Program-made: the position numbers and the translations under genes
The notes under the pieces: generated by a model
What the model saw: only the letters and a program-made list of their open reading frames with translations
Told to the model about the DNA's origin: nothing
The model's database searches: none
Assembly: GCA_035279865.1 (NCBI GenBank)
Contig: DATEGY010000316.1
Coordinates: forward strand, 1 to 49,291
Source of the DNA: Gemmatimonadales bacterium
GTDB taxonomy: Bacteria > Gemmatimonadota > Gemmatimonadetes > Gemmatimonadales > GWC2-71-9
DNA: 49,291 nt
Direction of reading: 5' to 3'
In this document: one piece after another, positions 17,340 through 46,606 of the stretch
Numbering within the stretch: the first letter of the stretch is position 1
Layout of the letters: the number at the start of each line of letters is the position of its first letter

Positions 17340-18416
17340 GTGGCTGAACTGCCCGGTACCGTGTCGGTGCTGGTGGTCGACGACGAAGAGCCCATCCGCA
17401 CCGCCTTGAAGAAGTTCCTGCAGCAGCAGCAGTTCGACGTCCTGACGGCCGCTTCCGGTGAAGAGGCCTTGGCGGCGTTGCGCCGGCACAAGCTCACCCT
17501 CATGCTGTGCGATATCCGCATGCCCGGCACGAGCGGCGTGGACCTGGTCCCCCAGGCCCTCGAGATCGAGCCCGATCTCGCCATCCTGATGCTCACCGCC
17601 GTCAACGACGCCACCAGTGCCGCCCTCTGCATGCAGCGGGGCGCCATGGACTACCTCACCAAACCCATCGAGCTCGCCGATCTGGGGCGCGCCATTCAGC
17701 GCGCGCTCAAGCGCCGCGAGACTCTGCTCGAACACCGCCACCTGAATCAGTGGTTGAAGGAAGAGGTCACGACCCGGACCGCCGAGCTGCAGCGGGAACG
17801 GCACAAGCTCGAGCGGATCTCCGTCGCGACGCTCGAAGCCCTGGTGAACGCCCTGGAAGCCAAGGATCCGTTCCTCCGCGGGCATTCGGCCCGCGTGGCG
17901 GACTTGGCCGCCACCATCGCCAACGAGATGGGCCTGTCCGACGAAGAAGTCGAAAATGTGCGGGTGGCCGGCCGGCTCCACGACATCGGGAAGATCGGCA
18001 CGCGGGAAAGCGTGATGAACAAGCAGGGACCGCTGACGCCAGAGGAATACGAGCACGTGAAGCAGCACGTGATCATCGGCTCTCAGATTCTGGCGCCTCT
18101 GACCCACCTGGGCAGCGTGATCGACATGGTCCGCAGTCACCACGAACGCTGGGACGGCACGGGTTACCCGGACGGGCTCCGGGGGGACGAGATCCCGCTG
18201 GGGGGACGCATTCTGGGCACGGCGGAGGTGTTCGACGCCCTCTCGACCGCGCGCCCCTACCAGGAAAAGCTCACTCCTGAACAGACCATCGAACGGCTCC
18301 GGGAGATGGCGGGGAGTGTCGTCGACCCGAGCGTGTTCGGCGTCCTGGCGGCGGTGGTCGGGAGACGGAAGAGCCTGGTCTTCCTGGACGACGGCGGGGT
18401 AGACCACGGACTATAA
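17340..18416 (+). CDS. response regulator receiver + HD-GYP domain protein (c-di-GMP phosphodiesterase type)
   Basis: GTG start after AGGAGG. Receiver motifs VLVVDDEE...LCDIRMPGTSG...TKP. HD-GYP motifs HSARVA...RLHDIGKIG...HHERWDGTGYPDGL. Confidence 0.9.
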   Translation: MAELPGTVSVLVVDDEEPIRTALKKFLQQQQFDVLTAASGEEALAALRRHKLTLMLCDIRMPGTSGVDLVPQALEIEPDLAILMLTAVNDATSAALCMQRGAMDYLTKPIELADLGRAIQRALKRRETLLEHRHLNQWLKEEVTTRTAELQRERHKLERISVATLEALVNALEAKDPFLRGHSARVADLAATIANEMGLSDEEVENVRVAGRLHDIGKIGTRESVMNKQGPLTPEEYEHVKQHVIIGSQILAPLTHLGSVIDMVRSHHERWDGTGYPDGLRGDEIPLGGRILGTAEVFDALSTARPYQEKLTPEQTIERLREMAGSVVDPSVFGVLAAVVGRRKSLVFLDDGGVDHGL

Positions 18417-22662: not shown

Positions 22663-23247
22663 ATGGGTGCCTGGATTCTGCTGATCCTGCTGGTGGTCGC
22701 CGTCTTCTGGGCCATCGGCGCCTACAACGGCCTCATTTCCCTGAAGAATCAGACCGTCAACGCCTTCAAGCAGATCGACGTGCAGCTCAAGCGCCGTCAC
22801 GACCTGATTCCCAACCTGGTCAACGCGGTGAAGGGCGCCATGGATTTCGAGAAATCGACGCTCGAGGCCGTGGTGCAGGCCCGCAATCAGGCGGTGCAGG
22901 TGAACGCCGCCGGCCCTGACGCCATGAAGCAGATCAGCCAGGCGGAAAACGCCCTGTCGGGTGCCTTGTCGAAGCTCATGGTGGTGGTGGAGCGGTACCC
23001 CGACTTGAAGGCCACGGGGAACGTCGGCCAGCTGCAGGAAGAGCTGACCTCCACGGAGAACCGTATCTCCTTCGCCCGTCAGCTCTACAACGATACGGCG
23101 ACACAGTACAACACCAAGCAACAGCAGTTTCCGGCGAGCCTGATGGCGGGTCTGGCGCACGCGGCTCCGGCCCAGCTGTGGGAGATCGACGATCAGGCCG
23201 AGAAGGCCGTGCCCCAGGTCGATCTCTCGATGAAGCCGAAGGTGTGA
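22663..23247 (+). CDS. lemA: LemA family protein
   Basis: N-terminal TM, then YNGLISLKNQTVNAFKQIDVQLKRRHDLIPNLV (LemA signature). Confidence 0.9.
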   Translation: MGAWILLILLVVAVFWAIGAYNGLISLKNQTVNAFKQIDVQLKRRHDLIPNLVNAVKGAMDFEKSTLEAVVQARNQAVQVNAAGPDAMKQISQAENALSGALSKLMVVVERYPDLKATGNVGQLQEELTSTENRISFARQLYNDTATQYNTKQQQFPASLMAGLAHAAPAQLWEIDDQAEKAVPQVDLSMKPKV

Positions 23248-24287
23248 GCGCGGGAGTCGACGCCGCCCCCAATCTGTTCCAGCAGCAGGATGCCAACCGA
23301 CGCCGGACCACCCTGCTGGTGGTCGGTTTCGTGCTGTTCTTCGCGTGGCTCGGGTTCGGCGGGGACTACATCTACTACCTCGCCACCCTCCACAACCTCT
23401 CCTACCAGACGCACCACACGTTCCCGTGGCTCGGCATCGTCCTGACCGTCGTGGGCGCCGGCATCGCGTGGTATGGCTACAACACGGGGCCCGAGAAGGT
23501 GCTCTGGTCCACGGGTGCGCGGGAGATCACCGACCCGGCCACCGACCAGGAGAAGCAGCTCGTCAACGTCGTCGAAGAGATGTCCATCGCGGCCGGCATC
23601 CCCCGCCCCCGCATCTGGATCGTCGACGACCCCGCGCCGAATGCTTTCGCCACCGGTATCGATCCCCAGCACGCGCACCTCGCGGTGACCCAGGGCCTGC
23701 TCGACCTGATGTCCCGCGACGAGCTCCAGGGCGTCGTCGCGCACGAGCTCGGGCACATCAAGAATTTCGACGTCCGCTTGATGACCACCCTCGCGGCGCT
23801 GGTGGGCGTGATTCTCCTCATCCGGGACGGTACGGGACGGTTCTTCTGGAGCGGGCGCTCCGGGAGTCGCTCGCGGGGCAAGGGCTCGGACCTGGGGGCC
23901 CTGGTCGTGGTCCTCCTGGTGATCTGGATCCTGTCCTGGATCGTCGCCCCCATCGTCACGCAGATGCTGGCGATGGCGGTGAGCCGGAAGCGGGAGTACC
24001 TGGCCGACGCGATGTCGGCGCAGTTCACGCGCAATCCGACGGCCCTCGCGTCCGCCCTTGAAAAGATCGAGAACTCGGAGGCCCCTGCTACGCACCTCAA
24101 GGCTGGGGCCGCCCATCTCTGTATTTGTGATCCGCTGGACCGGAAATTGAACGACCACCCTGGCGCGCTCGGGGACGTCATGGCGTCCCACCCGCCGATC
24201 GAAATGCGGATCATCCGGCTCAAAGGCATGGGGTACGCGCAGGCCAAACAGCAGGGCACGCTTCCCCCCGATTCGCCGACGGTCTAG
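23244..24287 (+). CDS. M48-family (HtpX-like) membrane zinc metallopeptidase
   Basis: GTG 23244 in a GTGA overlap with the lemA stop. HELGHIKNFD (HExxH) and TM segments. Confidence 0.85.
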   Translation: MSAGVDAAPNLFQQQDANRRRTTLLVVGFVLFFAWLGFGGDYIYYLATLHNLSYQTHHTFPWLGIVLTVVGAGIAWYGYNTGPEKVLWSTGAREITDPATDQEKQLVNVVEEMSIAAGIPRPRIWIVDDPAPNAFATGIDPQHAHLAVTQGLLDLMSRDELQGVVAHELGHIKNFDVRLMTTLAALVGVILLIRDGTGRFFWSGRSGSRSRGKGSDLGALVVVLLVIWILSWIVAPIVTQMLAMAVSRKREYLADAMSAQFTRNPTALASALEKIENSEAPATHLKAGAAHLCICDPLDRKLNDHPGALGDVMASHPPIEMRIIRLKGMGYAQAKQQGTLPPDSPTV

Positions 24288-33009: not shown

Positions 33010-34703
33010 TCGGCCGGTTCGACACTCTCCGTTGGCGGATCGTCGCCGGGTTCGCCTCCCTCGCTCTGCTCCTCCTCATCGGCGCGGGTGCCGGGATCTA
33101 TTCTCTCTGGAAGATGCGGGACGCGGTTTCCCAGGAGCTGGGCCGTCTCCAGACGTCCAACCAGATCACGACCGCGGTGATGGCGTCGACCTTCGCCGAG
33201 ATCCGCGCCGCCGAGCAGTACTTGAACGAGCCGTCCGCCACCGCTGCCGCCGATTTCCACCAGAACGCGGACTCCTCCTACGCGGACGCGAAGAGTCTGA
33301 GCGGTCTCGATGGGCTCACCGTCGAAGACCGGCTGTCGGTGAACCGGGTCCAGCAGATCCAGGGACAGATCGAGGTGACCTATTCCCTCGCGCACGCGCT
33401 CGCCGACATCGGGCGTGCGCCGCAGGCCCAGCAGGAAGCGCAGGCGGCCCGCGGTCCCGCCCGCGAGCTCACGACCATCCTGCTCTCGCTGGGCGCCCGG
33501 CAGGCGGACCGCTCCCGCCAGGCCACCGACCGGCTCTCGGGACTGGCGCGGCGGATGACCTTCCTGCTCTCCGGCGTGCTCGTCCTCGCGGTGGTCGGCG
33601 GCACGCTCGTGGGCTGGGGCACGCTGACCATGGTCGAAGCCCCCCTCCGCCGGCTGGCCACCGCGGCCGAGCGCTTCGGCGCTGGAGACCTCCGGCCGCT
33701 CAGTACGGGGAAGATGCCCTCGGAGTTCGAGGTCCTGGCGGCCGCCATCCGGGACATGGGCGAGCGGCTCCGCGGCGTTGTCACCGAGGTGATCACCGAG
33801 GCGGACCGCATCGCGACCTCGGCGGGAGACCTGTCCGCCGTGAGCGAAGAGCTGGCCGCGTCGAGTGCGGAAGTCTCGACGGCCATGGTGGACATTTCGT
33901 CGGGCGCCGAGAAGCAAAGAAACGAGCTGAACGACATGGGGGCCGGACTGGCCCAGCTCAAGGCGGCCGCCAGTGAGATCACGGAGTCGGCCGAGCGCGT
34001 CACGAAGCTGGGGGAGGAGATCCGCAACGTGGCCGACCGGCACCGCCACGATGTGATGGCCGCCTCCACCGCCCTCCTCGAAGTGCGGGAGGTGGTGCAG
34101 ACCACTTCGGGTCAGGTGACCGCCCTGGCCCAGCAGAGTGCGTCGATCGACGACTTCGTGGAGCTGATCAAGCGGATTTCGTCCCAGACCAACCTCCTGG
34201 CGCTGAACGCCGCCATTGAGGCGGCGCGGGCCGGCGAGCATGGCCGGGGCTTCGCCGTGGTGGCCCAGGAGGTCCGGCAGCTCGCGGACGAGTCGGCGCG
34301 CGCCGCCGAGGACGTGGCGAAGACCACGACCGCGATCCGGAAGCGCGTGGACGAAGTGACCGTCACCATGGGAACCGGCCAGACCAAGGTCCACGGCATC
34401 GAGACCACGGCGCGGGGAGCCGCCACCGGCTTGGCGGAGATCGTGGCGGCGGTGGAGGAGGTCGAGCGGGCGGCGGCGCGGGTCCGCCATGCCGCAGGCG
34501 TCAACCGCGAGGTCACGGATCACATCGGGGAGCGGGCCCAGCAGGTCGCCTCCCGCTCGGTCAATCACGCTGCGGGAGCCCAGGAAGTCTCGGCCGCCGC
34601 CGAGGAGCAGGGCGCGTCCACGGAGGAGATGGCGGCATCCTCGGGCGGCCTGCTGCAGGCCGCCGAGAAGCTGCGCTCCCTGATGAAAGGCTTCCGGGTC
34701 TAG
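33006..34703 (+). CDS. methyl-accepting chemotaxis protein
   Basis: TM, four-helix sensor, TM, HAMP, then the signalling domain ([47 protein letters not shown]). ATGA overlap with the binding-protein gene. Confidence 0.9.
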
Positions 34704-34709
34704 TCCCGC

Positions 34710-37052
34710 CTACCGCCGCGGCGGGGCCGGCTTGGCCCGGACCCGTGGGCTCACCTTCCGCCGCAACGAATCGGGATACATCGGGACCACATTGATGCGC
34801 ATCGGTGCGATCGTCGTCCGGGCCGCCTGGACGCCCACGGGTGGCGCAGCTGCATTGGTGGTCGTCGCTCCCCCGAGGTACCCGGGCGCCGTCGCCGTCA
34901 CGGTGAAGGTCCCGGTGCTGTTGAAGGTCACCCCGACGGAGTCGTAGTACGAGCCTGCCGGGATCGTCAAATGCGTCGAGTCCCACACCGCATTCGGATC
35001 CGTCGTGGACACGGTCACGGTGACGGGCGACGACACCACGCCGTACCGGACTCCGAGCGTGTCTTCTGTGTAGACATACACCTGGGTTTTCACACCGCGA
35101 GAGACGCAGCACGACACCACCGGCTGAACTACTGGAGTGTTGACGGTCAGTGTCTGCACCGAGTCGAACAGGGCCACGCCGGGAGCACGAGCCGTCAAGG
35201 TGGCCGATCCCAAGCCCGTTCCCGTGATCGGGAATTGGATAAAGTCTGAGTCCTTCAGAATGGTCACGGTGGCCGGGACTGTGAAGACCGTGGGGTCGGA
35301 GCTCACCAAGCTGACCACCAGCGGGGCCCGAAGGGGCCCTGCCACCGAAAGGTAGTTGTCGGTGGTGGTCTGCCCGAGGCCGGCGGCGAAGCTGCCTCCC
35401 GCATAGACGAACAGGAAGTTCGAGTCCACCGTCACCTGGGTGACCGCGGGCGGGTAGTTCGGGGCCTTGAACGTGATGGTCGCGTTCCCCGGCCTCACGC
35501 CGGCGATGGGAGCCAGCGCGTAGAAGTTGCCGGCCGGAATGGTAATGGTCGCCGAGTCCGGCAAGGCGATGCTCGAGTCCGAGGATGAATCCCGGATCAC
35601 CAGATCACTGGCCGTGTAATGGCCCGCCCCTGTGGAGTCCGCTGCGAACACAAGCGTGGGCACCGAAGCGACGCCGTTGTACGTGGACAAGGACGAGTCC
35701 ACTACCAGCATCGGAGTCGTGATAATGACGTTCGACAAGGCATTCTGGTAACCGGCGGCATGAGCGATCAAGTTCGCCGAACCCACGTTGCTTCCGGTGA
35801 TCTGTACACAACAGCCCAGCTGGCTGCCTGCGGGAACGAGGACGCTGGTACCCGCGAGCCCGAACTTCTGCGACGCCGCGGGAGCAGCACTGTCACTCCG
35901 GCCGATCTGGACGGTCAGGTCCTTGCTCACCGGGATTCGCGTCTTCACGAAGATGCTGTAGGACACCTGCGACTTGCCCAGCAGGTACGTCGTCGTGTCG
36001 AACGAGAGCGTGAACCCGGTATCTGCGGTCGCCGTGAACGTCACCGACGGAGGCGGCCCGGCGAAAACGCCCACGATCGACGCCGTGATCGTGTCGGTCC
36101 CGATCCCCGTGCCGAGCTGGTAGGTCGCCTTCGCGAACCCGAACGAGTCGGCGACGGTCGTATCCGGGGTGACCAGGGAGCCCTGGCCGGTCTTGGCCCA
36201 CGCGACCTTCGCCTGGCCGACGGGAATCCCGTTCACGTCGGTCACCAGGGTCTGGAGCGGGAAGGGGAGAACGGCCTTGGGCGTATCGACCTGCGCGTCC
36301 CCGCCGGCGACGTAGATGAACGTCGGAGCCCCGCCACCCGTCTTCGGCACGATGTAGATCTGCGTTGAATCCAGGATGTGATTGGGCGTCTCGCCGATCA
36401 GCCACGTGGTATCCACTTTCGTGCCCGGATTGATCGGCACGAGTGTGGGCGTCAGATAGGTCTTGTAGGTGATGACACCGAGGGCGGGGTTCTGAAGCCG
36501 GAACCCCACCGGCACGCCGGTGAGCGAGCCTTCGGACGAATCACTCACGGACGCATAGAGGGCCACCGGAAGTCCGGGGACCACCGTCGAATCCTGCGGG
36601 CCGATGAAGAGCAAGCCGGCGTTGCTGCCCGGACCCACCAGCCGGGCCAGGAGGTTGGGACTCGAGTTCTTCCCCGCCGCGACCGTGATCGTGTCGGATG
36701 CGATGTACCACGTGTAACCCTGCCCCTTCACGGTGACACCCATGGCGAACAGCTGGCTCGAATGCTTGAGCGGGACCGCGAGCGTGACCACGACGGCGCC
36801 GCCGGTGTACGGCCCTCCCCCGAATGCGAAGGCGGTGTCGTAGTCCGACGCGCCGTCCAGGCTCGTCAGCGCAACGGACACGGAATCGATGGGGATCGGC
36901 GGTTGGCCCGAGGTGGTCGTCGGGTTCCGGAAGGCGCTGAGGTCGAGCCCAAGCCGGCCCTGATAACGAGGGCCGTTCAGGCTCTGGTCCGTGCACGTGA
37001 TGACCAGCAACGCGAGCGCGACGCCCGAAACGATCCTGATTGGTCGATTCAT
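34710..37052 (-). CDS. Ig-like-repeat cell-surface protein, Cys-anchored (780 aa), paralog of the giant upstream gene
   Basis: Start MNRPIRIVSGVALALLVITCTDQSLNGPRY at ATG 37052. The N-terminus parallels the 1,889-aa protein (…LNVTCTDKSVVGPQRY). Repeated modules of the type LVVSLVSSDPTVFTVPATVTI...GLGSATLTARAPG. Confidence 0.8.
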   Translation of the reverse strand: MNRPIRIVSGVALALLVITCTDQSLNGPRYQGRLGLDLSAFRNPTTTSGQPPIPIDSVSVALTSLDGASDYDTAFAFGGGPYTGGAVVVTLAVPLKHSSQLFAMGVTVKGQGYTWYIASDTITVAAGKNSSPNLLARLVGPGSNAGLLFIGPQDSTVVPGLPVALYASVSDSSEGSLTGVPVGFRLQNPALGVITYKTYLTPTLVPINPGTKVDTTWLIGETPNHILDSTQIYIVPKTGGGAPTFIYVAGGDAQVDTPKAVLPFPLQTLVTDVNGIPVGQAKVAWAKTGQGSLVTPDTTVADSFGFAKATYQLGTGIGTDTITASIVGVFAGPPPSVTFTATADTGFTLSFDTTTYLLGKSQVSYSIFVKTRIPVSKDLTVQIGRSDSAAPAASQKFGLAGTSVLVPAGSQLGCCVQITGSNVGSANLIAHAAGYQNALSNVIITTPMLVVDSSLSTYNGVASVPTLVFAADSTGAGHYTASDLVIRDSSSDSSIALPDSATITIPAGNFYALAPIAGVRPGNATITFKAPNYPPAVTQVTVDSNFLFVYAGGSFAAGLGQTTTDNYLSVAGPLRAPLVVSLVSSDPTVFTVPATVTILKDSDFIQFPITGTGLGSATLTARAPGVALFDSVQTLTVNTPVVQPVVSCCVSRGVKTQVYVYTEDTLGVRYGVVSSPVTVTVSTTDPNAVWDSTHLTIPAGSYYDSVGVTFNSTGTFTVTATAPGYLGGATTTNAAAPPVGVQAARTTIAPMRINVVPMYPDSLRRKVSPRVRAKPAPPRR

Positions 37053-37069
37053 CTTGAGCTCGATTCTTT

Positions 37070-40000
37070 CTATTGAACCACGATCGTCCCGGACATCGAC
37101 GGGCCATGCACACTGCACTGGTACGTGTATATCCCCGGCGTCGTGAAGTAGACGCCGTAGTATCCACTCGACTGCTGTGGCGAATCGCCGGGCAAAGACC
37201 CGGGTCCGCTCACCCAGTGGACCCCGTGCAGATTGAGATTAGTCGCGTCCCAGACCCAGGTCGCGTAGTGATTCACGGCCACCGTGTCGGTCCCTGGGGT
37301 GAAGCTGTTCACGTTCCCCACGCCGACCTTGATCTCCACCCCGGTGACCGTGATGCCGGGGCTCGCACCCGACTCGAATCCCGTCGCCGCGGCCGTCACG
37401 GTGAAGACTCCGGCCGTGTCGAAGGTGACCGAGGTCGTGACCTGATAGTTGCCCGCCGGGAAGGGCAGCGGGTTGGTCAGGAACGTCGCGTGCGCTCCCG
37501 CGCTGGACCCGAGGGTCACCGACGCGGGATTGATGGCCGGATGGTAGTAGCCCAGCGTGTCTTCGGACAAGATTTGCACGTTCATCGGTTGGCCCGCCAC
37601 GGCGGAGCCGAACGGCTGAATCACCCAGCGAGCCGGGGTGACCACCACACCGACCGGGGCAGCGTTCTTGAAGCCGGTCGCGACGGCGGTGATCTGGGCC
37701 GTCCCGACCCCCACTCCCTGCATGTTGAAGACGGCACTGTAGCTGTTCACTGGGATGACCACCTGCGGCGGCACCGTCAACGCGCTCGGGTTCGTCGACG
37801 ACAAGGTGACCGTCACCGGAGACTGCGCGGCGAACGGCAGGTTGACGCTCCCGGTTTCCTGCAGCCCCACGGCCACCGACGTCGGTGAGCTGGTAGTCAT
37901 CGTCGCGGTATCCACCGTGATCAACATGGTATCGGACTTGTAGCCCGGCGCGGTGAAGAACGCCTGGACCGGGCCGGAGCCCTTCTTGAGCCCGCTGAAC
38001 TTGAAGGCGCTCGCAAGGGTGTACGTGCCGGCATTGATCTGCCGGGAGGCGGAGTCCACCGTCGCCACGGTCGGGTCGGAGACCGTCGCAGTGACTGTCA
38101 CGGGCGCGCTGACGTACCGCGTGCTGTTGCTCTGGTCCGCCGCATTGACACCCACACCCGTCGGTGCTGCCCCCACCGAGAGGAACAGACTCGGCGTCGC
38201 GATCAGCTGCGGCTTGCCCACCTGCACCGTGGCCGTCGCCTGCCCATAGTTTGTCGCCCGGGCAATGAGCTGGGCGGTGCCGATCGTGTCGCCGACGATG
38301 GTGTCGACGTTCGAAATGGTCGACCCGACCGGAATAGTCAGCGTGACCGGGCTGAAGTTGAAGACGTTCGACGCACCCCCGATCGGCTGGCTGTCGGAGC
38401 GCTGGAGCGTGATCAGGAGCGGTGACCCGGTGACCGGGTTCTGGACCGTCACCTGCTCGAACGTCATCTGCCCGACGCCCGTGGTGTTCGACGTCTGGGT
38501 GAAGTTCAGGGAGGGTCCCGTCACGCTCACCTGGAACGAGTCCGCGCCGAAGCCCGGCGCAGTCGCCTTGAGATACGCGGTGCCCGGTCCGACGAAGTTG
38601 ATCCGTACGACTCCGCCGAAGTGTTGGCTGTCCACCACGGCGGTCACGGTGTCCTCAGCCGCGTTGACATGCGCCCCGCTGTCGATCGCCACCACGAGAG
38701 GATTGCTCGACGTCACCGTGTAGACCAGCGAATCCGAAGGCGACTGGTTGTAGCCCACCTTGTTGTAAACGCCCGTGAACAGGCGGTAGGGGGGCGCGGT
38801 CGTCAGCTGGCTCGCGCTCGGCTTCGCGATCTCCAGAGTGTCTCGATAGAGGTACACCGGGACCCGGCCGGACACGAACCCAGTCGCCGACGCGATCAGC
38901 GTGTCGTTGCCGATAGAGTCGACTCCGCGCAAATCGAAGTACGTCGAGTACGAAGCGCCCTTCGGAATCGTCAGTATCGCCGGGACCACCGAGTCCTTGC
39001 CCGGCACGGCGTGCGACAGCACCACCGTCAACGTGTTCGGGGCGGCGGCAGGGATGGTGACCGTGTTGGACGCGCCGGTATGGAGCCCGCGTCCGATCAG
39101 ACCACTGTAGCCGATTTGGATGCTCAACGGCGTGGGGGTCACCCGGATCACGTTGCCAGAGTCCGGTGTCGAACCGGGCGCCGTGGTGAGGATCCTCGTC
39201 GAATCAGGCGCGTTGACCCCCACCGCCACCCGCATGGTGTCGTAGTTCGAGTAGGCGGAGCCCACCGGAATGATCACCGTGCTCGAATCGAGGGTGACCA
39301 CGTTCGGCCGGGAGAGGGCCAACGTGACCGTCAGGGGAGCATTGAGGGGACGCGGGTACTGGTTCACCGAATCATAGGCCACCATCTGGACCACCGACGG
39401 GGCGCTGATGTTCACCAGCGACGTCGCGTAGCTGTACGGCCGCACATGAAGCGGATCCACCCGGAGCACCCACACCACACCGGCTGGGAGGACGTATCCC
39501 GGTTTCGTGGCTACCGTGTCGATCGTCACTGTGTCGACCCCGACGCTCACGCCCGTGATGCTCGCCAGATACCCGATGATCTGGCCCTTGGGAATGAAGA
39601 TCGTGTCAGGCGCTTGCGGTCCGGACTTGTTCGTGTGGTGCAGGACCACGGCAAACGTGTCGGTCCGGGCGTACGGGATCTGGACGTAGACCGGTTGCGG
39701 GAACGTGGTGTTCAGCGCCACGCGGCCGTCGTAAGTCGGATAGTTGTACGCGGCGGTCATGGTCGGCTTGGTGACGTGGATGATCTGGCTGTCGGGCTTG
39801 TAACCCGGCGCAGAGACCACCAGCCACGTGGAGTCCCCTCCGGCGTTCGGCTGCGCGTAGACCGAGCTCCCGATGCTGTTGGAAGACGCCCCGGCCAGGA
39901 TGGGCCCGCTGTCCACCAGGACCTTTACCACCGACGTATCGCGCGACACGATGTGCGTCATCAGGGTCGCGCTCACCGCATGCCCGTACCGCAGCGAGTC

Positions 40001-42739
40001 GGAGGCCACCGCGTACCAGTAGCCGAGCGTCGGGGTCCCAGCCACCATGCTCGTGGTCCCACCGATGACGAGCTGGGGCGTCGTCACAATGAACGGCACG
40101 GTGGTCGAGAGCCACTTGCTGGCGCTCACCGTGAGCGTCGCCGTGCCGAGTGAGGTCCCCGTGACCGTGAAGTACTGGCTGGCCTGATTCACCGGGATCG
40201 TATCGGGGTTCGGGGCGACGGTCCCGATGGCCGGCGTCACCGCGATGCTGAACGGCAGGATGTGATCCATCCCGTACGAGATCTGCGCGTAGGGCTGCTC
40301 GGTCTGGCCCAGGCCCACCATGCCCGTGTAGGGATAGGGCTGGCCGATCTGGAACGTGTCTTTCGCCACGTGCAGATACGAGAACTTCCCGACGAAGGCA
40401 CCCGAGCTCGGGACCACGGAATCAGTCCCCGTTCCGGTCCCCACGAACTGGATCGGAGCGGCCAGCTGCCCACCCGGGATGACTACCGTGGTCGGATTCG
40501 TGGTCGAGAGGCCCTTGCCGAACACGAAGGTGACGCCCAGCCCGCCCGCCGGCGCCGGGTCGGACAGGAACACCTGGCCGTTCAGGGTCTCGGCCTGGTT
40601 GAGGTAGAAGTCCTGGGTCCACGTGGTCTGGTTCACCTGCGCAAAGAAGATCGTGGACACCACGATCACGCGGAGGGTGTCGGGCTTGTAAATCCCCGCG
40701 GAATCCTGAGCGATCACGTCCACCGGGGTCAGCGTCGCCGCCTTGCCCTGCAGCGTCACAGATGCGCCCGCCCCGCCGGACCCGATGACAATCCTGGTCT
40801 GCGTGGGCAGGACCTTCGTGGTGTCCGCCGAGACGATCTGCAGCACCGTACCGGCCGCGCTGGGCACGTTCAGCGAAACCGCCACCGTCGTGTTGCCGCC
40901 GTTGCCGATCGCGAGCGTGTCGAAAGCCCAGCGCAACACCGGTGGCGGGGACGGCACGACCGAAACCAGCGTGGAATCCCGGAAGACCGTGATCGAGTCG
41001 ACCAGTGTGTCCACGGCGTAGGTGGGCCCGGCGCCGATCGCCACGCCCGTCACGACACCCGACTGGTTCACCGTCGCGACGCTCGGATTCCGGGTCAGCC
41101 AGCCGAAGACTCGGCCTGGAATCGCGTGGCCATTCTTGTCCTTCGCCGTGGCGAGAATCTGCGCCTGTCCGCCCACCCCGACCTGAATCGAGTCGGGCGG
41201 CGTGTTGACGATGCTGAACACCTTCTGGTTCACGCGGAGGGTGGCGGTGCCCGAGACCTTGTTGACGGTATCCGTCGCCTGCACCACGCCGTTCCCCGCC
41301 CCGACCAGCGTCGCCTCACCCGTCACCGCGTTCACCGTCACCACGCTGGGCACCGTGGAGGCGAACCGGATCACGGTCCCGGTCTTCAGGGTGTCCCCGA
41401 AGTTGGTGAGCACCACCCCGGTCAGATGCACGGAGTCGCCGATGGAGGTGATCACCGTGTCCGACGGCGAAAGCGCGACCTTGGCCGGCGCGCGGACGAA
41501 CAACCGCGCCGTATCGGCGTAGCCTCCCGCCGTCGCGACGATGAGCGCCGAGTCGCCCGCCAGCCCCGTGGCGAGACCCGTCGAGTCCACCGTGGCCACC
41601 GCCGTGTTGGTCGACGTCCAGACCGGTTTGACCGATGAGATGACGTTGCCGAGCGAATCCTTCAGGGTCGCCGTGAACTGGACGGTCGCGCCCTTGGCCA
41701 GGGTGTCGAGCTTCGGCGTCACGATGACCTGATGGACGAGCCCCGCCAGCACGTTCACGGTGAACGTGATCGGCGATCCGGTGAGACCGCCGGCGGCCGC
41801 CTGCACCTTCACGATGCCGAGCGACGACGGCGTGACCGTCACGCTCGAGTTGCCACCCGTATCGGAGATGACCGGCGACGGCGGCGTCAGTGTCGCCGTA
41901 CCCTGTGTCACGGTCCAGGTCACCGGCACGCCCGGCGAGCCGCCATTCAGCGCGTCCTCCACCCGCACCGTGAGCGGAGCGGCGGACGGACCGTTCACGA
42001 GCACGCTCTGGCTGTCCCCCGAGATCTTCTTCAACTGGGAGGGCGGCGGCACGATGTGGATGCGGGTGGAATCACGGAGATGCGTGGGCGTTTCGACATA
42101 AATCCACACGCTGTCGCGGATCCCCGTCGCCCCGGTGAACGTGCCGGTCGTCGACGTGGGCTGCGAAATCTTGCCCTTGGTCGTGTCTCCCGAGAGCAGG
42201 CCCACCGGAACGTTGGCGACGGCCGAGCCCCCGGAATCCACGCTGATCCGGAGGGTCACGGCCTGCCCACCCACGACCGTCGTGTCGCGCGGGGCGAGGG
42301 TCACGGTGGTGGCCCCGGCGCCCGGGCCGACGTACCGGGCCGCGAGAACGGGCGTCGCCGGAGTGGTGCTCGAGAGTTGTGTGGTGTCGGTCGCCACGTA
42401 CCAGATCGCGTTTCCGCCGTAGGCCGAGACCGTGAGCACGAAGGTCTCGGGATCCTTGTCGAGGGAGACCGTCAGATCGACCTGGAGCGAATCGGCGCGG
42501 GGCGTGGTCAGCGAGAAGATCTTGTTCAACGCGGTGGCGAGACCGGGGAGGCGCTGGAGCACCACGCGCACGCTGTCGAGCGGGATGTTGGGCATCCCGG
42601 GCTGCGCCGGGGAGGCGAAGGCGCGCAGGTTCAGCGCCGTCGTCCCGTACCGTTGCGGGCCGACGACGCTCTTGTCCGTGCACGTGACGTTCAGGAGGGC
42701 GAGGAGAACCCCGACCCCGATGCGCGATCTAAGGCGCAC
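37070..42739 (-). CDS. giant (1,889 aa) cell-surface protein: signal/Cys anchor, Big_2 Ig-like domains, many Ig-like modules, C-terminal cupredoxin domain
   Basis: At least three Big_2-type domains (e.g. GATVQFTATLKDSLGNVISSVKPVWTSTNTAVATVDSTGLATGLAGDSALIVATAGG). More than 10 modules of about 100 aa (…VTVTLSSTNPSALTVPPQVVIP…GVGTAQITAVATGF). The C-terminus ...HGVHW...PGIYTYQCSVHGPSMSGTIVVQ is a type-1 copper-site pattern. Confidence 0.9.
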   Translation of the reverse strand: MRLRSRIGVGVLLALLNVTCTDKSVVGPQRYGTTALNLRAFASPAQPGMPNIPLDSVRVVLQRLPGLATALNKIFSLTTPRADSLQVDLTVSLDKDPETFVLTVSAYGGNAIWYVATDTTQLSSTTPATPVLAARYVGPGAGATTVTLAPRDTTVVGGQAVTLRISVDSGGSAVANVPVGLLSGDTTKGKISQPTSTTGTFTGATGIRDSVWIYVETPTHLRDSTRIHIVPPPSQLKKISGDSQSVLVNGPSAAPLTVRVEDALNGGSPGVPVTWTVTQGTATLTPPSPVISDTGGNSSVTVTPSSLGIVKVQAAAGGLTGSPITFTVNVLAGLVHQVIVTPKLDTLAKGATVQFTATLKDSLGNVISSVKPVWTSTNTAVATVDSTGLATGLAGDSALIVATAGGYADTARLFVRAPAKVALSPSDTVITSIGDSVHLTGVVLTNFGDTLKTGTVIRFASTVPSVVTVNAVTGEATLVGAGNGVVQATDTVNKVSGTATLRVNQKVFSIVNTPPDSIQVGVGGQAQILATAKDKNGHAIPGRVFGWLTRNPSVATVNQSGVVTGVAIGAGPTYAVDTLVDSITVFRDSTLVSVVPSPPPVLRWAFDTLAIGNGGNTTVAVSLNVPSAAGTVLQIVSADTTKVLPTQTRIVIGSGGAGASVTLQGKAATLTPVDVIAQDSAGIYKPDTLRVIVVSTIFFAQVNQTTWTQDFYLNQAETLNGQVFLSDPAPAGGLGVTFVFGKGLSTTNPTTVVIPGGQLAAPIQFVGTGTGTDSVVPSSGAFVGKFSYLHVAKDTFQIGQPYPYTGMVGLGQTEQPYAQISYGMDHILPFSIAVTPAIGTVAPNPDTIPVNQASQYFTVTGTSLGTATLTVSASKWLSTTVPFIVTTPQLVIGGTTSMVAGTPTLGYWYAVASDSLRYGHAVSATLMTHIVSRDTSVVKVLVDSGPILAGASSNSIGSSVYAQPNAGGDSTWLVVSAPGYKPDSQIIHVTKPTMTAAYNYPTYDGRVALNTTFPQPVYVQIPYARTDTFAVVLHHTNKSGPQAPDTIFIPKGQIIGYLASITGVSVGVDTVTIDTVATKPGYVLPAGVVWVLRVDPLHVRPYSYATSLVNISAPSVVQMVAYDSVNQYPRPLNAPLTVTLALSRPNVVTLDSSTVIIPVGSAYSNYDTMRVAVGVNAPDSTRILTTAPGSTPDSGNVIRVTPTPLSIQIGYSGLIGRGLHTGASNTVTIPAAAPNTLTVVLSHAVPGKDSVVPAILTIPKGASYSTYFDLRGVDSIGNDTLIASATGFVSGRVPVYLYRDTLEIAKPSASQLTTAPPYRLFTGVYNKVGYNQSPSDSLVYTVTSSNPLVVAIDSGAHVNAAEDTVTAVVDSQHFGGVVRINFVGPGTAYLKATAPGFGADSFQVSVTGPSLNFTQTSNTTGVGQMTFEQVTVQNPVTGSPLLITLQRSDSQPIGGASNVFNFSPVTLTIPVGSTISNVDTIVGDTIGTAQLIARATNYGQATATVQVGKPQLIATPSLFLSVGAAPTGVGVNAADQSNSTRYVSAPVTVTATVSDPTVATVDSASRQINAGTYTLASAFKFSGLKKGSGPVQAFFTAPGYKSDTMLITVDTATMTTSSPTSVAVGLQETGSVNLPFAAQSPVTVTLSSTNPSALTVPPQVVIPVNSYSAVFNMQGVGVGTAQITAVATGFKNAAPVGVVVTPARWVIQPFGSAVAGQPMNVQILSEDTLGYYHPAINPASVTLGSSAGAHATFLTNPLPFPAGNYQVTTSVTFDTAGVFTVTAAATGFESGASPGITVTGVEIKVGVGNVNSFTPGTDTVAVNHYATWVWDATNLNLHGVHWVSGPGSLPGDSPQQSSGYYGVYFTTPGIYTYQCSVHGPSMSGTIVVQ

Positions 42740-42749
42740 GGTCCCCGGT

Positions 42750-43076
42750 TTAGCGGCGGGCTTTTTTCGGAGCCTTCTTGTCGGGCTTCTTTGCGGGGGG
42801 TTTCGCCTTGGGCGCGCGCGCCGCTTTACGCGTCACCTTCGACGACCCCTGCACGTCGTTCAGGACACGGTCGCCCTCTTCGGCGCCGATGAGGCCGCGC
42901 CGGACGGCGTACCGGATCAGCTCTTCCGCATCCTCGAAGGTGAACTCACCGATTCCAGCGGCGGCCCGGATGGCCCGCACCAGGGAGTCCGCAACCGGAC
43001 TCCGGAGCACACTGGCGATCCCGGGCAGGGCTTCGAGCAGCGAAGAGATTTGCGATCCGCCCAGCTCAGCGGTCAT
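42750..43076 (-). CDS. small protein with histone-H1-like Lys/Ala/Pro-rich C-terminal tail (108 aa)
   Basis: Helical N-terminal domain, then KVTRKAARAPKAKPPAKKPDKKAPKKARR. GGGAG SD. The stop lies 10 nt before the giant gene's GTG. Confidence 0.65.
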   Translation of the reverse strand: MTAELGGSQISSLLEALPGIASVLRSPVADSLVRAIRAAAGIGEFTFEDAEELIRYAVRRGLIGAEEGDRVLNDVQGSSKVTRKAARAPKAKPPAKKPDKKAPKKARR

Positions 43077-43105
43077 CGCGCTGCTCCCAGGTTGAAGGTG
43101 GCGCC

Positions 43106-43134
43106 AACCTACCGCCCGCCCCGGACACCGTCAA
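43106..43134 (-). promoter_or_regulatory. sigma70-like internal promoter candidate
   Basis: Reverse strand reads TTGACG, 17 nt, TAGGTT, about 30 nt upstream of ATG 43076, within the 91-bp gap after the OM barrel gene. Confidence 0.35.
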
Positions 43135-43167
43135 GAATTCGGTCGCCTGCCTCCCGAATGCCTGTAT

Positions 43168-44310
43168 CTAGTGCTGATACCGGAGCGTCAATTGCACCGA
43201 CGCGCCCGTAAAATTGACGATCTGACCGGCGAGCTGCTCCAGCGCCTTCCCCGTGGTGTACCGCCCCTCGACCGCGGCCGTGAACTGGTCCGACAGGCCG
43301 AACCGCGCCGCCAAGCCGCCGGTCACGTAGGTGCCGCCCTTCTGGCCGGGAGACCACGTACGGACGCCCACCACGGGCTGGATGGAGACCTGCGGGGACG
43401 CCGGAATCGCGAACCGGGCTTCGGCATTGAGGACGTTCTCGGAGTTCGTTCTGATCGTGAGCGTGTCCTGCTGGAAAGTCCCCTTGGCGCGATAATAGTC
43501 CCAGACCGCGATCGACAGCGTGTTGCTGCCCATGGCACTGGTCCAACCCGCATCCCCGATGATTCGGAGTCCCGGCGCCAACTGCCCCGTTCGAGGACCC
43601 CCAGAACCCGAGAGCTGTTCATTCGAGAAGGTCGACGCCGTCAGCCCCGCCAGAAAGCGGGAGGACTGCCCCACCAGCCGATCAGCGCCCACTCGACCGC
43701 GGAACTCGACGCCCGGTTTGTAGTTCGTCGACCCCGAGGGATCCGAAAGGAGCGTGTAGGACCCGGTGTACCGGACCGCGCCGGAGACGCCGACGTTCCA
43801 GGCACCGGCCGGCGTCGCGAACGCCAGACCGCCCGTCGCGCCGAACGCAGTTCCGAAATCCGAAACCGGGAACGACAGGTAGTTCGATCCCACGGCTTCG
43901 TACACGGTGAATTGGTTTGTCGTCAGCGCGCGCTGCCCCGTCGGAAGGTTGACGGACAGCGAGGCGACGAGGCGGTCCCGGTTTAGCGTATAGAGGAGGC
44001 GCAGCTGGGTGTCCGTCAGACCGCTGAGGGTCTGGTCGGACCCTCCGCCACCGCCGTTGGTCTTGGCGCTCGCGTAGTGCGCCGTCAGATCCACGGACAT
44101 GCTGCTGCCCAGGGGTGCCACAAGCACCACCGGAATCGCGAACTCGGACGACTTGGCGCCCGATGGGGTCGAGAACGAATACGACTGGAACTGGAAACCG
44201 GTGTATCCGGCCCAGCGGGTGTAGAGCGCGTCGGACGCCTGGCCCTGGAGCGTACCCGCTCCGGCACAAACGAGCAGGAGGGCGACGGCGCTGCGGTGCA
44301 TCGGGCGCAT
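43168..44310 (-). CDS. outer-membrane beta-barrel protein (380 aa)
   Basis: Signal peptide MRPMHRSAVALLLVCAGAGTLQGQA. Alternating beta-strand pattern throughout, SGLTD motif, terminal strand ...VQLTLRYQH. GGGAGG SD. Confidence 0.7.
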   Translation of the reverse strand: MRPMHRSAVALLLVCAGAGTLQGQASDALYTRWAGYTGFQFQSYSFSTPSGAKSSEFAIPVVLVAPLGSSMSVDLTAHYASAKTNGGGGGSDQTLSGLTDTQLRLLYTLNRDRLVASLSVNLPTGQRALTTNQFTVYEAVGSNYLSFPVSDFGTAFGATGGLAFATPAGAWNVGVSGAVRYTGSYTLLSDPSGSTNYKPGVEFRGRVGADRLVGQSSRFLAGLTASTFSNEQLSGSGGPRTGQLAPGLRIIGDAGWTSAMGSNTLSIAVWDYYRAKGTFQQDTLTIRTNSENVLNAEARFAIPASPQVSIQPVVGVRTWSPGQKGGTYVTGGLAARFGLSDQFTAAVEGRYTTGKALEQLAGQIVNFTGASVQLTLRYQH

Positions 44311-44320
44311 CGTGCCTCCC

Positions 44321-45721
44321 TTAGGGGCGGGTGATGATGATGATGATCGTGCCGACCAGACCGATGTTCTGCGGACCGCAGATCACCGGGCCGCAGATGC
44401 CCTGTTTGGTCGGCGGACCGACGCTCGGGTTGCCATTGCTCCCCGTATTGCCACTCCCCACGGGCAGGTCGCCGGCGCCGCTGGGAACCGCGCCATTCAT
44501 CGCGCCACCGAGGGTGACGGTGATGTCGGCATTGGTCTGCCCTCCTCCCCCGCCGCCGCCCGTGCCTCCGCCCAGATCGGACGCCATGTCACTCGCGGAC
44601 GCCGTCGATGCCGACTGGGCCTGCTGGCTCGACGCGGCCGCCGACCCGGCCGCACTGAATCCGGGGTCACGCTGTGCCGCCGCCTGAAAGGCCTGCGCCG
44701 CCGCACCGAAGTTCCCCTGGTCCTGCGCGGCGAGGCCGCGGCTGTACAGCAGAAACGCTTCGAGATCCCGCGTGGGCCGTTCGCTGATGGCGGTCTGCTC
44801 CGACGGCGTCAGCGTGACGCCCATCTTCCCGAGCAGCTGAAACACGACCTGCTTCTCGACGTCGAAGAGCGCCTGGAGCCGGTCCGATCCGGTGCCCGTC
44901 GCGGCCACGCCGGCGTCCTGGGTCCGGACCACGGTCGCGTTGACGCGAACCTGGTTGGGCTGGACGTCGAACTGTCCCTGGACCACCTGGGACGCACCGA
45001 TCAGGTGGCCCGACCGCGCGCCGGTGGTGGGATCCACCCGCCCCGACTCGGTCAGCTTCATTTCGTCGAGCAGCGCCTGCATCCGCTCGCGCTCGAGCAG
45101 CCGGAGGCTGTGCACGCGCGACAGATCCGTGACGACGAGGGACGCGAGGCCGCGGGAGAGCGGCGCGTACGTCGAATCCGTTCCGGTGTAGCGGAACGGC
45201 ATGACCGCCACCGTATTGGGGGGAGGCGGCGTCTTGGACAACGTCGCTTCCTGGGACAGCGCCTGGCGGGCTTCGAAGACCAGCTGGTGTTGCGCCACCA
45301 GGGCGAGGCGGCCGTCGAGGAGCTTCTTCACCGCGCCCGAGGGCTTGGACGCCGCGAGCCTGGTGTAGACGGTGCGCGCCGAGTCGAACTGCCCGAGACC
45401 CTCGTAGGTGTACCCGAGATAGACCTGCGCCTCGGCGTTGTCGGGCTGGTGGAGGAGGGTGCGGCCGAGGGCGGCCCGGGCATCGTCGTATCGCTTGGCC
45501 GAATAGTACGCCTCACCCAGCCGCAAATTCGCCGCCGGATCGTCCGGTGCCTGCGCCCGGCGCGCCTCGAGGGCCGGGATGTCGGCGGGCGCGGGTGGCG
45601 GCGCCGCGGGGGCTCCGGCACAGGCACCCGCGAGCGCGAACGCCGCCAAGCCGAAGACACGCCGGCGCCGGCGCGAGGTCAGGGTGGGCATGGGCGTGGG
45701 CATCGCGGGAGTGGGGGACAT
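44321..45721 (-). CDS. TPR + CsgG/LpoB-like lipoprotein with Gly-rich and Cys/Ile-rich C-terminal tail (466 aa)
   Basis: RRRRRVFGLAAFALAGAC signal/lipobox-like. TPR (LRLGEAYYSAKRYDDARAAL...). CsgG-like core (VAVMPFRYTG...LSRGLASLVVTDLSRV..LRLLERERMQALLDEMKL). Tail ...GGGTGGGGGGGQ...GICGPVICGPQNIGLVGTIIIIITRP. Confidence 0.65.
   Translation of the reverse strand: MSPTPAMPTPMPTLTSRRRRRVFGLAAFALAGACAGAPAAPPPAPADIPALEARRAQAPDDPAANLRLGEAYYSAKRYDDARAALGRTLLHQPDNAEAQVYLGYTYEGLGQFDSARTVYTRLAASKPSGAVKKLLDGRLALVAQHQLVFEARQALSQEATLSKTPPPPNTVAVMPFRYTGTDSTYAPLSRGLASLVVTDLSRVHSLRLLERERMQALLDEMKLTESGRVDPTTGARSGHLIGASQVVQGQFDVQPNQVRVNATVVRTQDAGVAATGTGSDRLQALFDVEKQVVFQLLGKMGVTLTPSEQTAISERPTRDLEAFLLYSRGLAAQDQGNFGAAAQAFQAAAQRDPGFSAAGSAAASSQQAQSASTASASDMASDLGGGTGGGGGGGQTNADITVTLGGAMNGAVPSGAGDLPVGSGNTGSNGNPSVGPPTKQGICGPVICGPQNIGLVGTIIIIITRP
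44333..44347 (-). repeat. (ATC)5 trinucleotide microsatellite encoding Ile5 at the 3' end of the CsgG-like gene
   Basis: gatgatgatgatgat on the + strand. It is conspicuous in GC-rich coding DNA. Confidence 0.9.
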
Positions 45722-45904
45722 TTCGACTCGTTTGCGTGAAGGTAAGACCAGGGTATGAGTGGGTCGGTGACCCCCCCTCGTCAGGTCCGGTGAGGGCGGT
45801 CACGGTCCGCTATCCTCCGGCCTCTCAGAGAGATACCCGTCCCCGAAGGGCTGTCAAGGAGACTTGGCCTCCCCTAGATTTCGCTTCGGAGGTCTTGTCG
45901 ATCA

Positions 45905-46216
45905 GTGGGGCGACGGGGAGTAAAGGAGTACCGGGCGTCTGAAGCCCTGGGCTTGATTGCAGCCGATCGCGAGCACCAGCCGCTGGTTTGTCCCTCGTGC
46001 GGGGCTCGGGCCATTCAGCGGGTGCCGCGAAGGCGCCCCGCGCGCCCGGAGGACGCCCCCCGCATCGGTGAGCGGATCAGTCTGACGTGCGGTAAATGCG
46101 GAAGACATGCGTCCTACATCGAAGGCGGCACCTTGCCGCCCCGGGACGCGACCATGGACCCCCAGAATTCCCCGGCCGATGATGAAGGGGAGCGAGGCAA
46201 TCGACGTGGCGGGTGA
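45905..46216 (+). CDS. possible small zinc-ribbon protein (103 aa)
   Basis: CPSCG...(38 aa)...CGKCG four-Cys pattern and moderately high third-position GC. The 3' end overlaps the infA start by 11 nt. Confidence 0.4.
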
Positions 46217-46433: not shown

Positions 46434-46606
46434 CGTCGAGAAACACAACGTCGAGAAACAATGCGTGTAGTTCCACGCCCTGCTTCTCGACGTTTTGTCT
46501 CTTGACGCCTTGTCTCTTGACGTCTTGCTTCTCGACGTTTTGTCTCTTGACGCCTTGTCTCTTGACGCCTTGTCTCTTGACGCCTTGCTTCTCGACGCCT
46601 TTTCTA
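46434..46606 (+). repeat. 15-nt tandem repeat array: 2 reverse units, 10-nt centre, 9 forward units
   Basis: cgtcgagaaacacaa/cgtcgagaaacaatg – cgtgtagttc – cacgccctgcttctc/gacgttttgtctctt/gacgccttgtctctt/gacgtcttgcttctc/gacgttttgtctctt/gacgccttgtctctt/gacgccttgtctctt/gacgccttgcttctc/gacgccttttcta. It fills the convergent infA / TonB-receptor gap exactly. Confidence 0.9.

Follow-up and report, generated by a model that had tools for sequence, protein, structure and literature searches.

Do five neighbouring genes on the minus strand of a Gemmatimonadales contig encode one pathway that exports and anchors large proteins at the cell surface, or is the functional unit smaller than the string? The genes, here called g1 to g5, lie in a 49,291-nucleotide stretch (contig DATEGY010000316.1 of assembly GCA_035279865.1; hereafter the window) with a G+C content of 63-71%, which the names of homologues assign to an uncultured Gemmatimonadales bacterium. 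In order, they encode a lipoprotein with tetratricopeptide repeats (TPRs), a predicted outer-membrane beta-barrel, a small protein with a lysine-rich tail and two long proteins with immunoglobulin (Ig)-like repeats, the first of which ends in a predicted copper domain. The original prediction, made from the DNA alone, listed five minus-strand genes, and the open reading frames (ORFs) confirm them; homologues are conserved for each, so all five are real genes. The link between the g4 family and the g1-g2 pair is real, and the five genes are not one fixed system. The pair itself is best explained as a conserved outer-membrane pair specific to Gemmatimonadales. Our preferred reading, to which a probability of about 0.4 may be attached, is that g1 and g2 form an outer-membrane complex that docks or exports an optional stalked cupredoxin, in a layout resembling that of the Slam and PelBC systems and belonging to neither.

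The case for a g1-g2 unit begins with gene order. A pattern scan of one genome per Genome Taxonomy Database (GTDB) species returned 47 loci, all from metagenome-assembled genomes and all labelled Gemmatimonadales, Gemmatimonadaceae or Gemmatimonadota apart from two short contigs. The order infA (opposite strand), g1, g2, g3, chemoreceptor gene (opposite strand) is kept throughout these loci, and g1 and g2 are adjacent wherever both are seen. In 39 of the loci the sequence beyond g3 or g2 can be read, which makes them informative; 23 of these carry a g4-type gene, joined by g5 in only two. Among complete loci, g5 is found only in close relatives of the window (L001/L002, L008, L010, L053, L056-L058 and L108-L112). 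The quintet is thus syntenic in near relatives only, and not across relatives as a fixed pathway would have it.

The same question was approached from the cargo side by searching metagenomes with an alignment of the N-terminal module that defines the g4 family, which gave 64 loci. Wherever upstream sequence exists, the gene lies directly after g3, directly after g2 or, as a g5 copy, after g4; in the two loci that lack upstream sequence, the chemoreceptor gene comes next. A 38%-identical relative (P0418) also occupies this locus. Six loci, one from the species scan and five from metagenomes (L044, L077, L083, L091, L095 and L110), have the order g3-g1-g2-g4, so that g3 stands upstream of g1 and g1-g2-g4 stay contiguous. 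The predicted pairing of an assembly module with its cargo therefore stands as far as the g4 family is tied to g1-g2 on 64 metagenome contigs, but not as an obligate arrangement, g4 being absent from 16 of the 39 informative species. Three loci with the alternative order (L083, L088 and L095) form a divergent sub-lineage in which g2 is only 28% and g1 about 41% identical to the window's copies and which might be used as an outgroup to the cassette.

The junctions between the genes point the same way for g1 and g2. The TAA stop of g1 abuts the sequence GGGAGG, rather than lying inside this Shine-Dalgarno element as had been proposed, and the ATG of g2 follows 10 nucleotides past the stop. This stop, Shine-Dalgarno and start arrangement is conserved across the order and is consistent with translational coupling. 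The predicted distances of 10 nucleotides between g3 and g4 and 17 between g4 and g5 are exact, and the tight spacing claimed for the whole string holds at these three junctions; the gap of 91 nucleotides between g2 and g3 is the sole loose one. Upstream, the block is bordered by the divergent infA; downstream, the g5 stop lies 6 nucleotides from that of a convergent chemoreceptor gene (window 34703-34712), and a scan found no terminator-like hairpin between the two stops. Terminator-like sites in the region show no excess over shuffled sequences, and a consensus scan found no promoter-like sites inside the g1-g5 block and no sigma-70-like promoters in the region.

It may be that the genes form no functional unit, being neighbours by descent in a very stable region whose tight spacing reflects a compact genome. 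The genes infA, g0 (a small ORF considered below), g3 and those for the chemoreceptor and a binding protein do keep their order even in relatives that lack g1, g2 and g4; g3 is clearly unrelated in function; and a 27%-identical Ig-like lipoprotein is encoded at another locus. Descent alone does not readily account for the conserved g1-g2 junction, for the contiguity of g1-g2-g4 in the alternative gene order, for a g4 family never found elsewhere among the 64 contigs or for a block with no promoter- or terminator-like sites inside it, and we regard this explanation as decidedly unlikely.

The gene that fits the string least is g3. Its product has an 80-residue helical N-terminal domain and a Lys/Ala/Pro-rich tail resembling that of histone H1, with no signal peptide. 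Its identity is 73-100% across loci in which that of g2 is only 42-74%. A HMMER search of 1.84 billion representative proteins returned only 178 clusters, which have the N-terminal domain in common and tails of very variable length. The N-terminal domain matches no Pfam family, a weak HC2 match occurs in the tail of one homologue, and a search against solved structures found nothing. In the more distant relatives L117/L118 and L119, g3 (206-248 residues) lies directly before the convergent chemoreceptor gene, with none of g1, g2, g4 or g5 within 8 kilobases; L119 keeps infA and g0 upstream. The g3 gene product is best treated as a cytoplasmic, functionally unrelated bystander, older than the g1-g2-g4 cassette. 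The most distant homologue (E-value 7e-6) is named "PHA synthesis regulator phasin" by the Joint Genome Institute (JGI), and PhaF of Pseudomonas, which combines a phasin domain with an H1-like tail, may be related, being alike in its short helical N-terminal domain and Lys/Ala/Pro-rich tail. However, g3 has no phasin-domain match in Pfam or NCBIfam and no polyhydroxyalkanoate (PHA) genes nearby. The single operon that had been proposed is thus borne out insofar as the genes are co-directional, close and free of internal promoter- or terminator-like sites, but it includes a bystander that is found without g1, g2 and g4.

Table 1. Positions in the window of the five genes and of the features discussed in the text.
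Feature	Position	Strand	Length or basis
g1	44321-45721	-	466 amino acids
g2	43168-44310	-	380 amino acids
g3	42750-43076	-	108 amino acids
g4	37070-42739	-	1889 amino acids, GTG start
g5	34710-37052	-	780 amino acids, counted from homologue-supported ATG
Promoter-like element TTGACA-N16-TATCTC upstream of g1	45830-45857	-	conserved in relatives
g1 middle alpha/beta domain, about residues 163-300	44822-45235	-	Pfam CsgG, N-terminal half of profile
g1 C-terminal motif P..C(E)...C.GP......GTIIIII-x-RP, extreme C-terminus	44324-44416	-	nearly invariant in family
g2 conserved loop with short helix, residues 123-156, between strands 5 and 6	43843-43944	-	alignment and model
g4 signal peptide, invariant ..TC(T)(D/E) and family-defining N-terminal module, residues 1-232	42044-42739	-	alignment; T4, C5, G12 and P13 among invariants
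g4 array of about 11 divergent repeats of about 100 amino acids each, residues 734-1791	37367-40540	-	iterated self-search with hidden Markov models
g4 C-terminal type-1 copper (cupredoxin) domain	37073-37342	-	ligands H...C-x2-H-x4-M

The upstream component, g1, carries the canonical lipobox ..FALAGAC.., in which Ala occupies -1 and the Cys is invariant in the family. Beyond it come a TPR region, a domain resembling those of TolB-N, LpoB and CsgG-N, a second TPR region, a variable Gly/Ser/Pro linker and a conserved C-terminal tail. The TPRs match Pfam TPR families at residues 49-135 and 320-385. The earlier suggestion of a CsgG-like core is correct to the extent that residues 163-250 match Pfam CsgG (PF03783) above threshold (E-value 5e-10), but the match covers only positions 4-97 of a 210-position profile. 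The same half-match appears in 13 of 13 relatives, alongside weak matches to LpoB in 11 of the 13 and to TolB_N and FlgO in three each. A profile of the middle domain had zero matches to solved structures, CsgG included, and the g1 sequence matched only TPR proteins among solved structures; weak matches to pilotin-type TPR lipoproteins, such as PilW and Tgl, were also present. The AlphaFold model has a mean predicted local distance difference test score (pLDDT) of 62 and is confident in the TPR parts only, the middle domain and tail falling below 50. It is too poor for a fold search, and the CsgG-like domain is therefore judged by profile coverage. In CsgG, two membrane hairpins build a 36-stranded nonameric channel; set against the positions of those hairpins, the g1 domain, at only about 140 residues, would leave no room for either. 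Judged in this way, g1 is not a CsgG-type channel.

More than 1000 g1 homologues exist, labelled "TolB-like", "TPR" or "CsgG/HfaB family". Species without g4 keep the C-terminal motif unchanged. Its run of isoleucines is too short for a helix and could form one membrane or interface strand. The tail as a whole, with its two Cys residues and GTIIIII-x-RP as the final residues, is unlike the sorting signals familiar to us. The g1 sequence SRRRRRVFGL might suggest twin-arginine export, but relatives do not conserve it and that route was rejected.

The cargo candidates, g4 and g5, belong to one family. The g4 product consists of a signal peptide, the two-domain N-terminal module (residues 21-232 proper), Big_1 and Big_2-like domains, the repeats, which match no Pfam family, and a C-terminal cupredoxin domain. 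The N-terminal module is the sole part common to all members of the family, long or short. The resemblance between g4 and g5 had been placed in an N-terminal anchor, and the anchor motif is exact in g5 but reads GPQRY rather than GP.Y in g4; far more than the anchor is shared. By BLASTP, residues 1-310 are 36% identical, and g4 residues 1396-1793 are 31% identical to g5 residues 316-730, within the C-terminal repeats. In effect g5, which holds four to five copies of the g4-type repeat, joins the N-terminal 310 residues of g4 to its final repeats and omits the cupredoxin. The g5 copies also share a conserved basic C-terminal tail, ..PMYPDSLRRKVSPRVRAKPAPPRR (window 34713-34800), that is not present in g4.

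The cupredoxin domain of g4 matches amicyanin in NCBIfam (E-value 1.5e-4) and in the Protein Data Bank (PDB; 1e-3) and Pfam Copper-bind (0.08), all falling short of the curated cut-offs. Its ligand set, HGVHW ... YQCSVHGPSM, is conserved in the orthologues that have the domain and is absent from g5, L025, L029 and L043. Only two Cys residues occur in g4, one in the putative lipobox and one among the copper ligands. Family members range from about 410 to 2100 amino acids, and the smallest complete forms (421-428 amino acids) comprise the N-terminal module, Big_1, a proline linker and the cupredoxin. Precomputed annotations place these forms in Pfam Copper-bind (PF00127) and/or Cupredoxin_1 (PF13473), and JGI names them plastocyanin. 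The sequences are best explained by an ancestral, plastocyanin-like blue-copper protein of about 425 residues, whose spacer would have grown here to about 15 Ig-like domains. Since the minimal members look like tethered plastocyanins, the g4 of the window would be an expanded tethered plastocyanin and not a distinct fibre protein. An S-layer or adhesin identity is likewise not favoured, the minimal members being plastocyanin-like proteins of 425 amino acids.

These observations bear on the pathway first proposed for the string, a fixed five-gene system that would send two giant proteins out through a CsgG-like channel and a dedicated barrel, to form a redox-active fibre or sheath. In its favour are a Pfam CsgG match above threshold, the presence in one string of a barrel gene together with two large Ig-repeat proteins, and the copper domain of g4. 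However, the CsgG profile is matched over its N-terminal half only, in a domain with no room for channel hairpins; the quintet is restricted to close relatives; g3 appears to be cytoplasmic and older than the cassette; and family members are as short as about 410 amino acids. The redox-active fibre in particular was overstated, as g4 has one copper site, at its C-terminal tip, per 1889 residues and g5 has none. Synteny and profile coverage already refute such a pathway in part, and we consider it very improbable.

The prediction that g2 is a beta-barrel is well supported by a confident AlphaFold model (pLDDT 81; predicted template modelling score 0.76), and the protein has a signal peptide. 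About 18 strands were counted from the strand string of the model, and only the signal peptide and about 10 residues precede the first. No Pfam match was found for g2 or 47 relatives (48 members in all) at E-values up to 1, leaving assignments to DUF560/Slam, CopB, OprP and similar families unsupported. Neither the g2 sequence nor its family profile matched anything among PDB structures. Of its 434 homologues, every one with a source name is labelled hypothetical protein. Foldseek returned only generic barrels (FadL, porins, BcsC, PelB and FapF) with template modelling scores (TM-scores) of 0.35-0.50; BcsC was highest at 0.49-0.50, with porins at 0.45 and PelB at 0.42. The loop between strands 5 and 6, whose helix spans residues 131-140 in the model, sits in the best-conserved stretch of the family alignment.

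Within the preferred reading, g1 would be a periplasmic lipoprotein partner of g2, probably a pilotin or docking scaffold. Analogous roles are played by AlgK for AlgE, by PelC and the PelB TPRs for the PelB barrel and by the TPR domain of Slam. The g1-g2 complex would bind or translocate the N-terminal module of g4 or g5, and the stalk and copper domain would then project from the outer membrane, where the latter may be redox active. In the window, an extended stalk of about 19 domains would exceed the width of the periplasm. Both g4 and g5 are probably lipid-anchored, with an invariant Cys past the hydrophobic region, and the complex would also have a role independent of g4. A bolder version, in which g1-g2 is an undescribed two-component machine for surface-lipoprotein display outside Proteobacteria, presenting a blue-copper domain as an extracellular redox "antenna" on an Ig stalk whose length evolution would have tuned between about 0 and 15 domains, seems unlikely.

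Several points weigh against this reading. No homology of g2 to any translocon family was found by Foldseek, Pfam or PDB profile searches. The conserved g2 loop may fold inward as a constriction loop, as loop L3 does in porins, and would then suit a solute-porin-like barrel. The lipobox rule places [LVI][ASTVI][GAS]C where the signal peptide ends, and the g4/g5 sequence has Thr at -1 (..VTC or ..ITC) family-wide, outside the canonical G/A/S. Because the infA, chemoreceptor and binding-protein genes are collinear across the order, the linkage may in part reflect vertical inheritance. Where g4 is missing, in 16 of the 39 species loci, g3 is followed at once by the chemoreceptor gene, no more than 104 nucleotides away. 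Fourteen of these species group together in the g2 tree, as one clade that radiated once g4 had been lost, and L027 marks a separate loss. Since g1 and g2 persist there, with the g1 tail conserved, the pair must have a function independent of g4. Loci without cargo do not exclude a translocon, because only about 52% of Slam genes adjoin a lipoprotein gene (PMC5449769), a partial adjacency much like that of the 23 of 39 g4-bearing loci here. Laz, the lipid-modified azurin of Neisseria and the closest tethered cupredoxin, is reported to be periplasmic and not surface exposed (PMC6277709).

Some of these points fit better with a model in which g1-g2 passes something other than protein, whether a solute or a polymer moving out or in (as in AlgK/AlgE or PelBC), and g4 and g5 are periplasmic tethered electron carriers. 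These would be no more than co-transcribed or would work functionally downstream, for instance on the material that g2 lets through, and would not be translocated by it. The persistence of g1-g2 without g4, the helix-bearing loop, which recalls porin constriction loops, and a ranking of structural matches headed by BcsC, with porins next, all suggest such a channel; the minimal g4 forms, which are "plastocyanins" of ordinary size, and the reported location of Laz suit a periplasmic carrier. Yet the unit lacks genes for a synthase, a glycosyltransferase or a transporter, members of the g4 family occur at the g1-g2 locus only, and stalks of up to about 2000 amino acids would be hard to account for in a periplasmic shuttle. 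This model, the strongest of the alternatives, is somewhat doubtful, and docking or export of the stalked cupredoxin by g1-g2 is retained as the preferred reading.

The sequence upstream of g1 retains traces of an older arrangement. In most relatives, g0, an ORF of 84-96 amino acids that belongs to no family, lies between the TTGACA element and g1. It has been deleted in the window and in a few close relatives (window 45722-45830 compared with L001 8283-8650), with its Shine-Dalgarno sequence and 3' end remaining. The string TCCTTGACAGCCC..GTATCTC of the promoter-like element is retained upstream of g1 in 16 related loci, and the element itself was not called as a promoter by the consensus scan. 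The 5' leader, which has a GTGACC...GGTCAC repeat, folds no better than shuffled sequences (z -0.28), and searches of the window for Rfam families and tRNAs gave no hits.

Other features of the window lie outside the block. A small ORF directly upstream of infA (45905-46216, plus strand) encodes two CxxC pairs (CPSC...CGKC) with the look of a zinc ribbon; its DNA is well conserved in L001, and an 88-residue gene is called at the same place in L003. Between the stop of a TonB-dependent receptor gene and the 3' end of infA is a tandem array (46475-46605) of the 15-base-pair unit TTGTCTCTTGACGCC in 7.4 copies, or alternatively of a 45-base-pair unit in 2.9. Elsewhere (5465-8730, 12286-13611, 17340-18416 and 23178-24287), genes encode two PMT_2-type (GT-C) glycosyltransferase-like proteins, a glutamine synthetase, a response regulator with an HD-GYP-type domain and an M48 peptidase. 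A scan of the ten longest of the remaining ORFs in the window revealed neither copper enzymes nor nos/nir genes.

Routes by which lipoproteins reach the cell surface are known in few lineages: Slam in Proteobacteria, an export signal in Bacteroidota and, in part, those of spirochaetes. If the preferred reading is correct, a barrel and TPR-lipoprotein pair tied to a single lipoprotein family would represent an independent answer to the problem of surface display, in an abundant and barely cultured soil order. The family also amounts to a natural experiment on how far a domain can reach, as the spacer that separates the N-terminal module from the copper domain ranges between a proline linker and about 15 Ig domains. 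If one of the other explanations holds, what is gained is annotation: an outer-membrane pair conserved in Gemmatimonadales, a protein with an H1-type tail that is specific to the lineage, and a family of tethered plastocyanins, where, apart from a few generic domain-level labels, the g1-g5 families are currently named "hypothetical".

A literature search found no paper on this gene set, and the defining features of the CsgG, Slam and PelBC families fail here. Like CsgG and HfaB, g1 is a lipoprotein with the same N-terminal alpha/beta sub-fold, matched by PF03783. However, it lacks the hairpin half that forms the channel and has TPRs and a tail in addition, and no csgE/csgF, csgA/B amyloid subunit or hfaA/D partner genes occur among the neighbours in the window or its relatives. 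Slam, or type 11 secretion (Neisseria Slam1/2, with TbpB, HpuA and fHbp), is alike in combining TPRs and an outer-membrane barrel, encoded beside genes for the lipoproteins that Slam delivers to the cell surface. It differs in being a single polypeptide with a 14-stranded DUF560 barrel, whereas the TPRs here are on the separate lipoprotein g1 and g2 has about 18 strands and no DUF560 signal. The C-terminal TbpB-like barrel of Slam cargo is also missing from g4, and the phylum is different.

The exopolysaccharide systems PelBC, AlgK/AlgE, BcsC and PgaA share a 16-18-stranded barrel with periplasmic TPRs, and in PelBC a ring of small lipoproteins lies under the barrel together with the TPRs (PMC12141448). 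The structural matches of g2 to BcsC and PelB are nevertheless no better than those to generic porins, FadL or FapF. Here the TPRs and a small alpha/beta domain are on one lipoprotein, the likely partner is a protein, and no co-encoded synthase or modification enzymes are present in the unit or its flanks. As for the cargo, Neisseria Laz, Chloroflexus auracyanin and the archaeal halocyanins each have a type-1 copper domain tethered by an N-terminal lipid via a spacer, and g4 appears to follow the same plan. It differs in that the spacer is a folded Ig stalk, with 0 to about 15 extra domains past the two-domain module, and in that the gene is locked to an outer-membrane barrel and lipoprotein pair.

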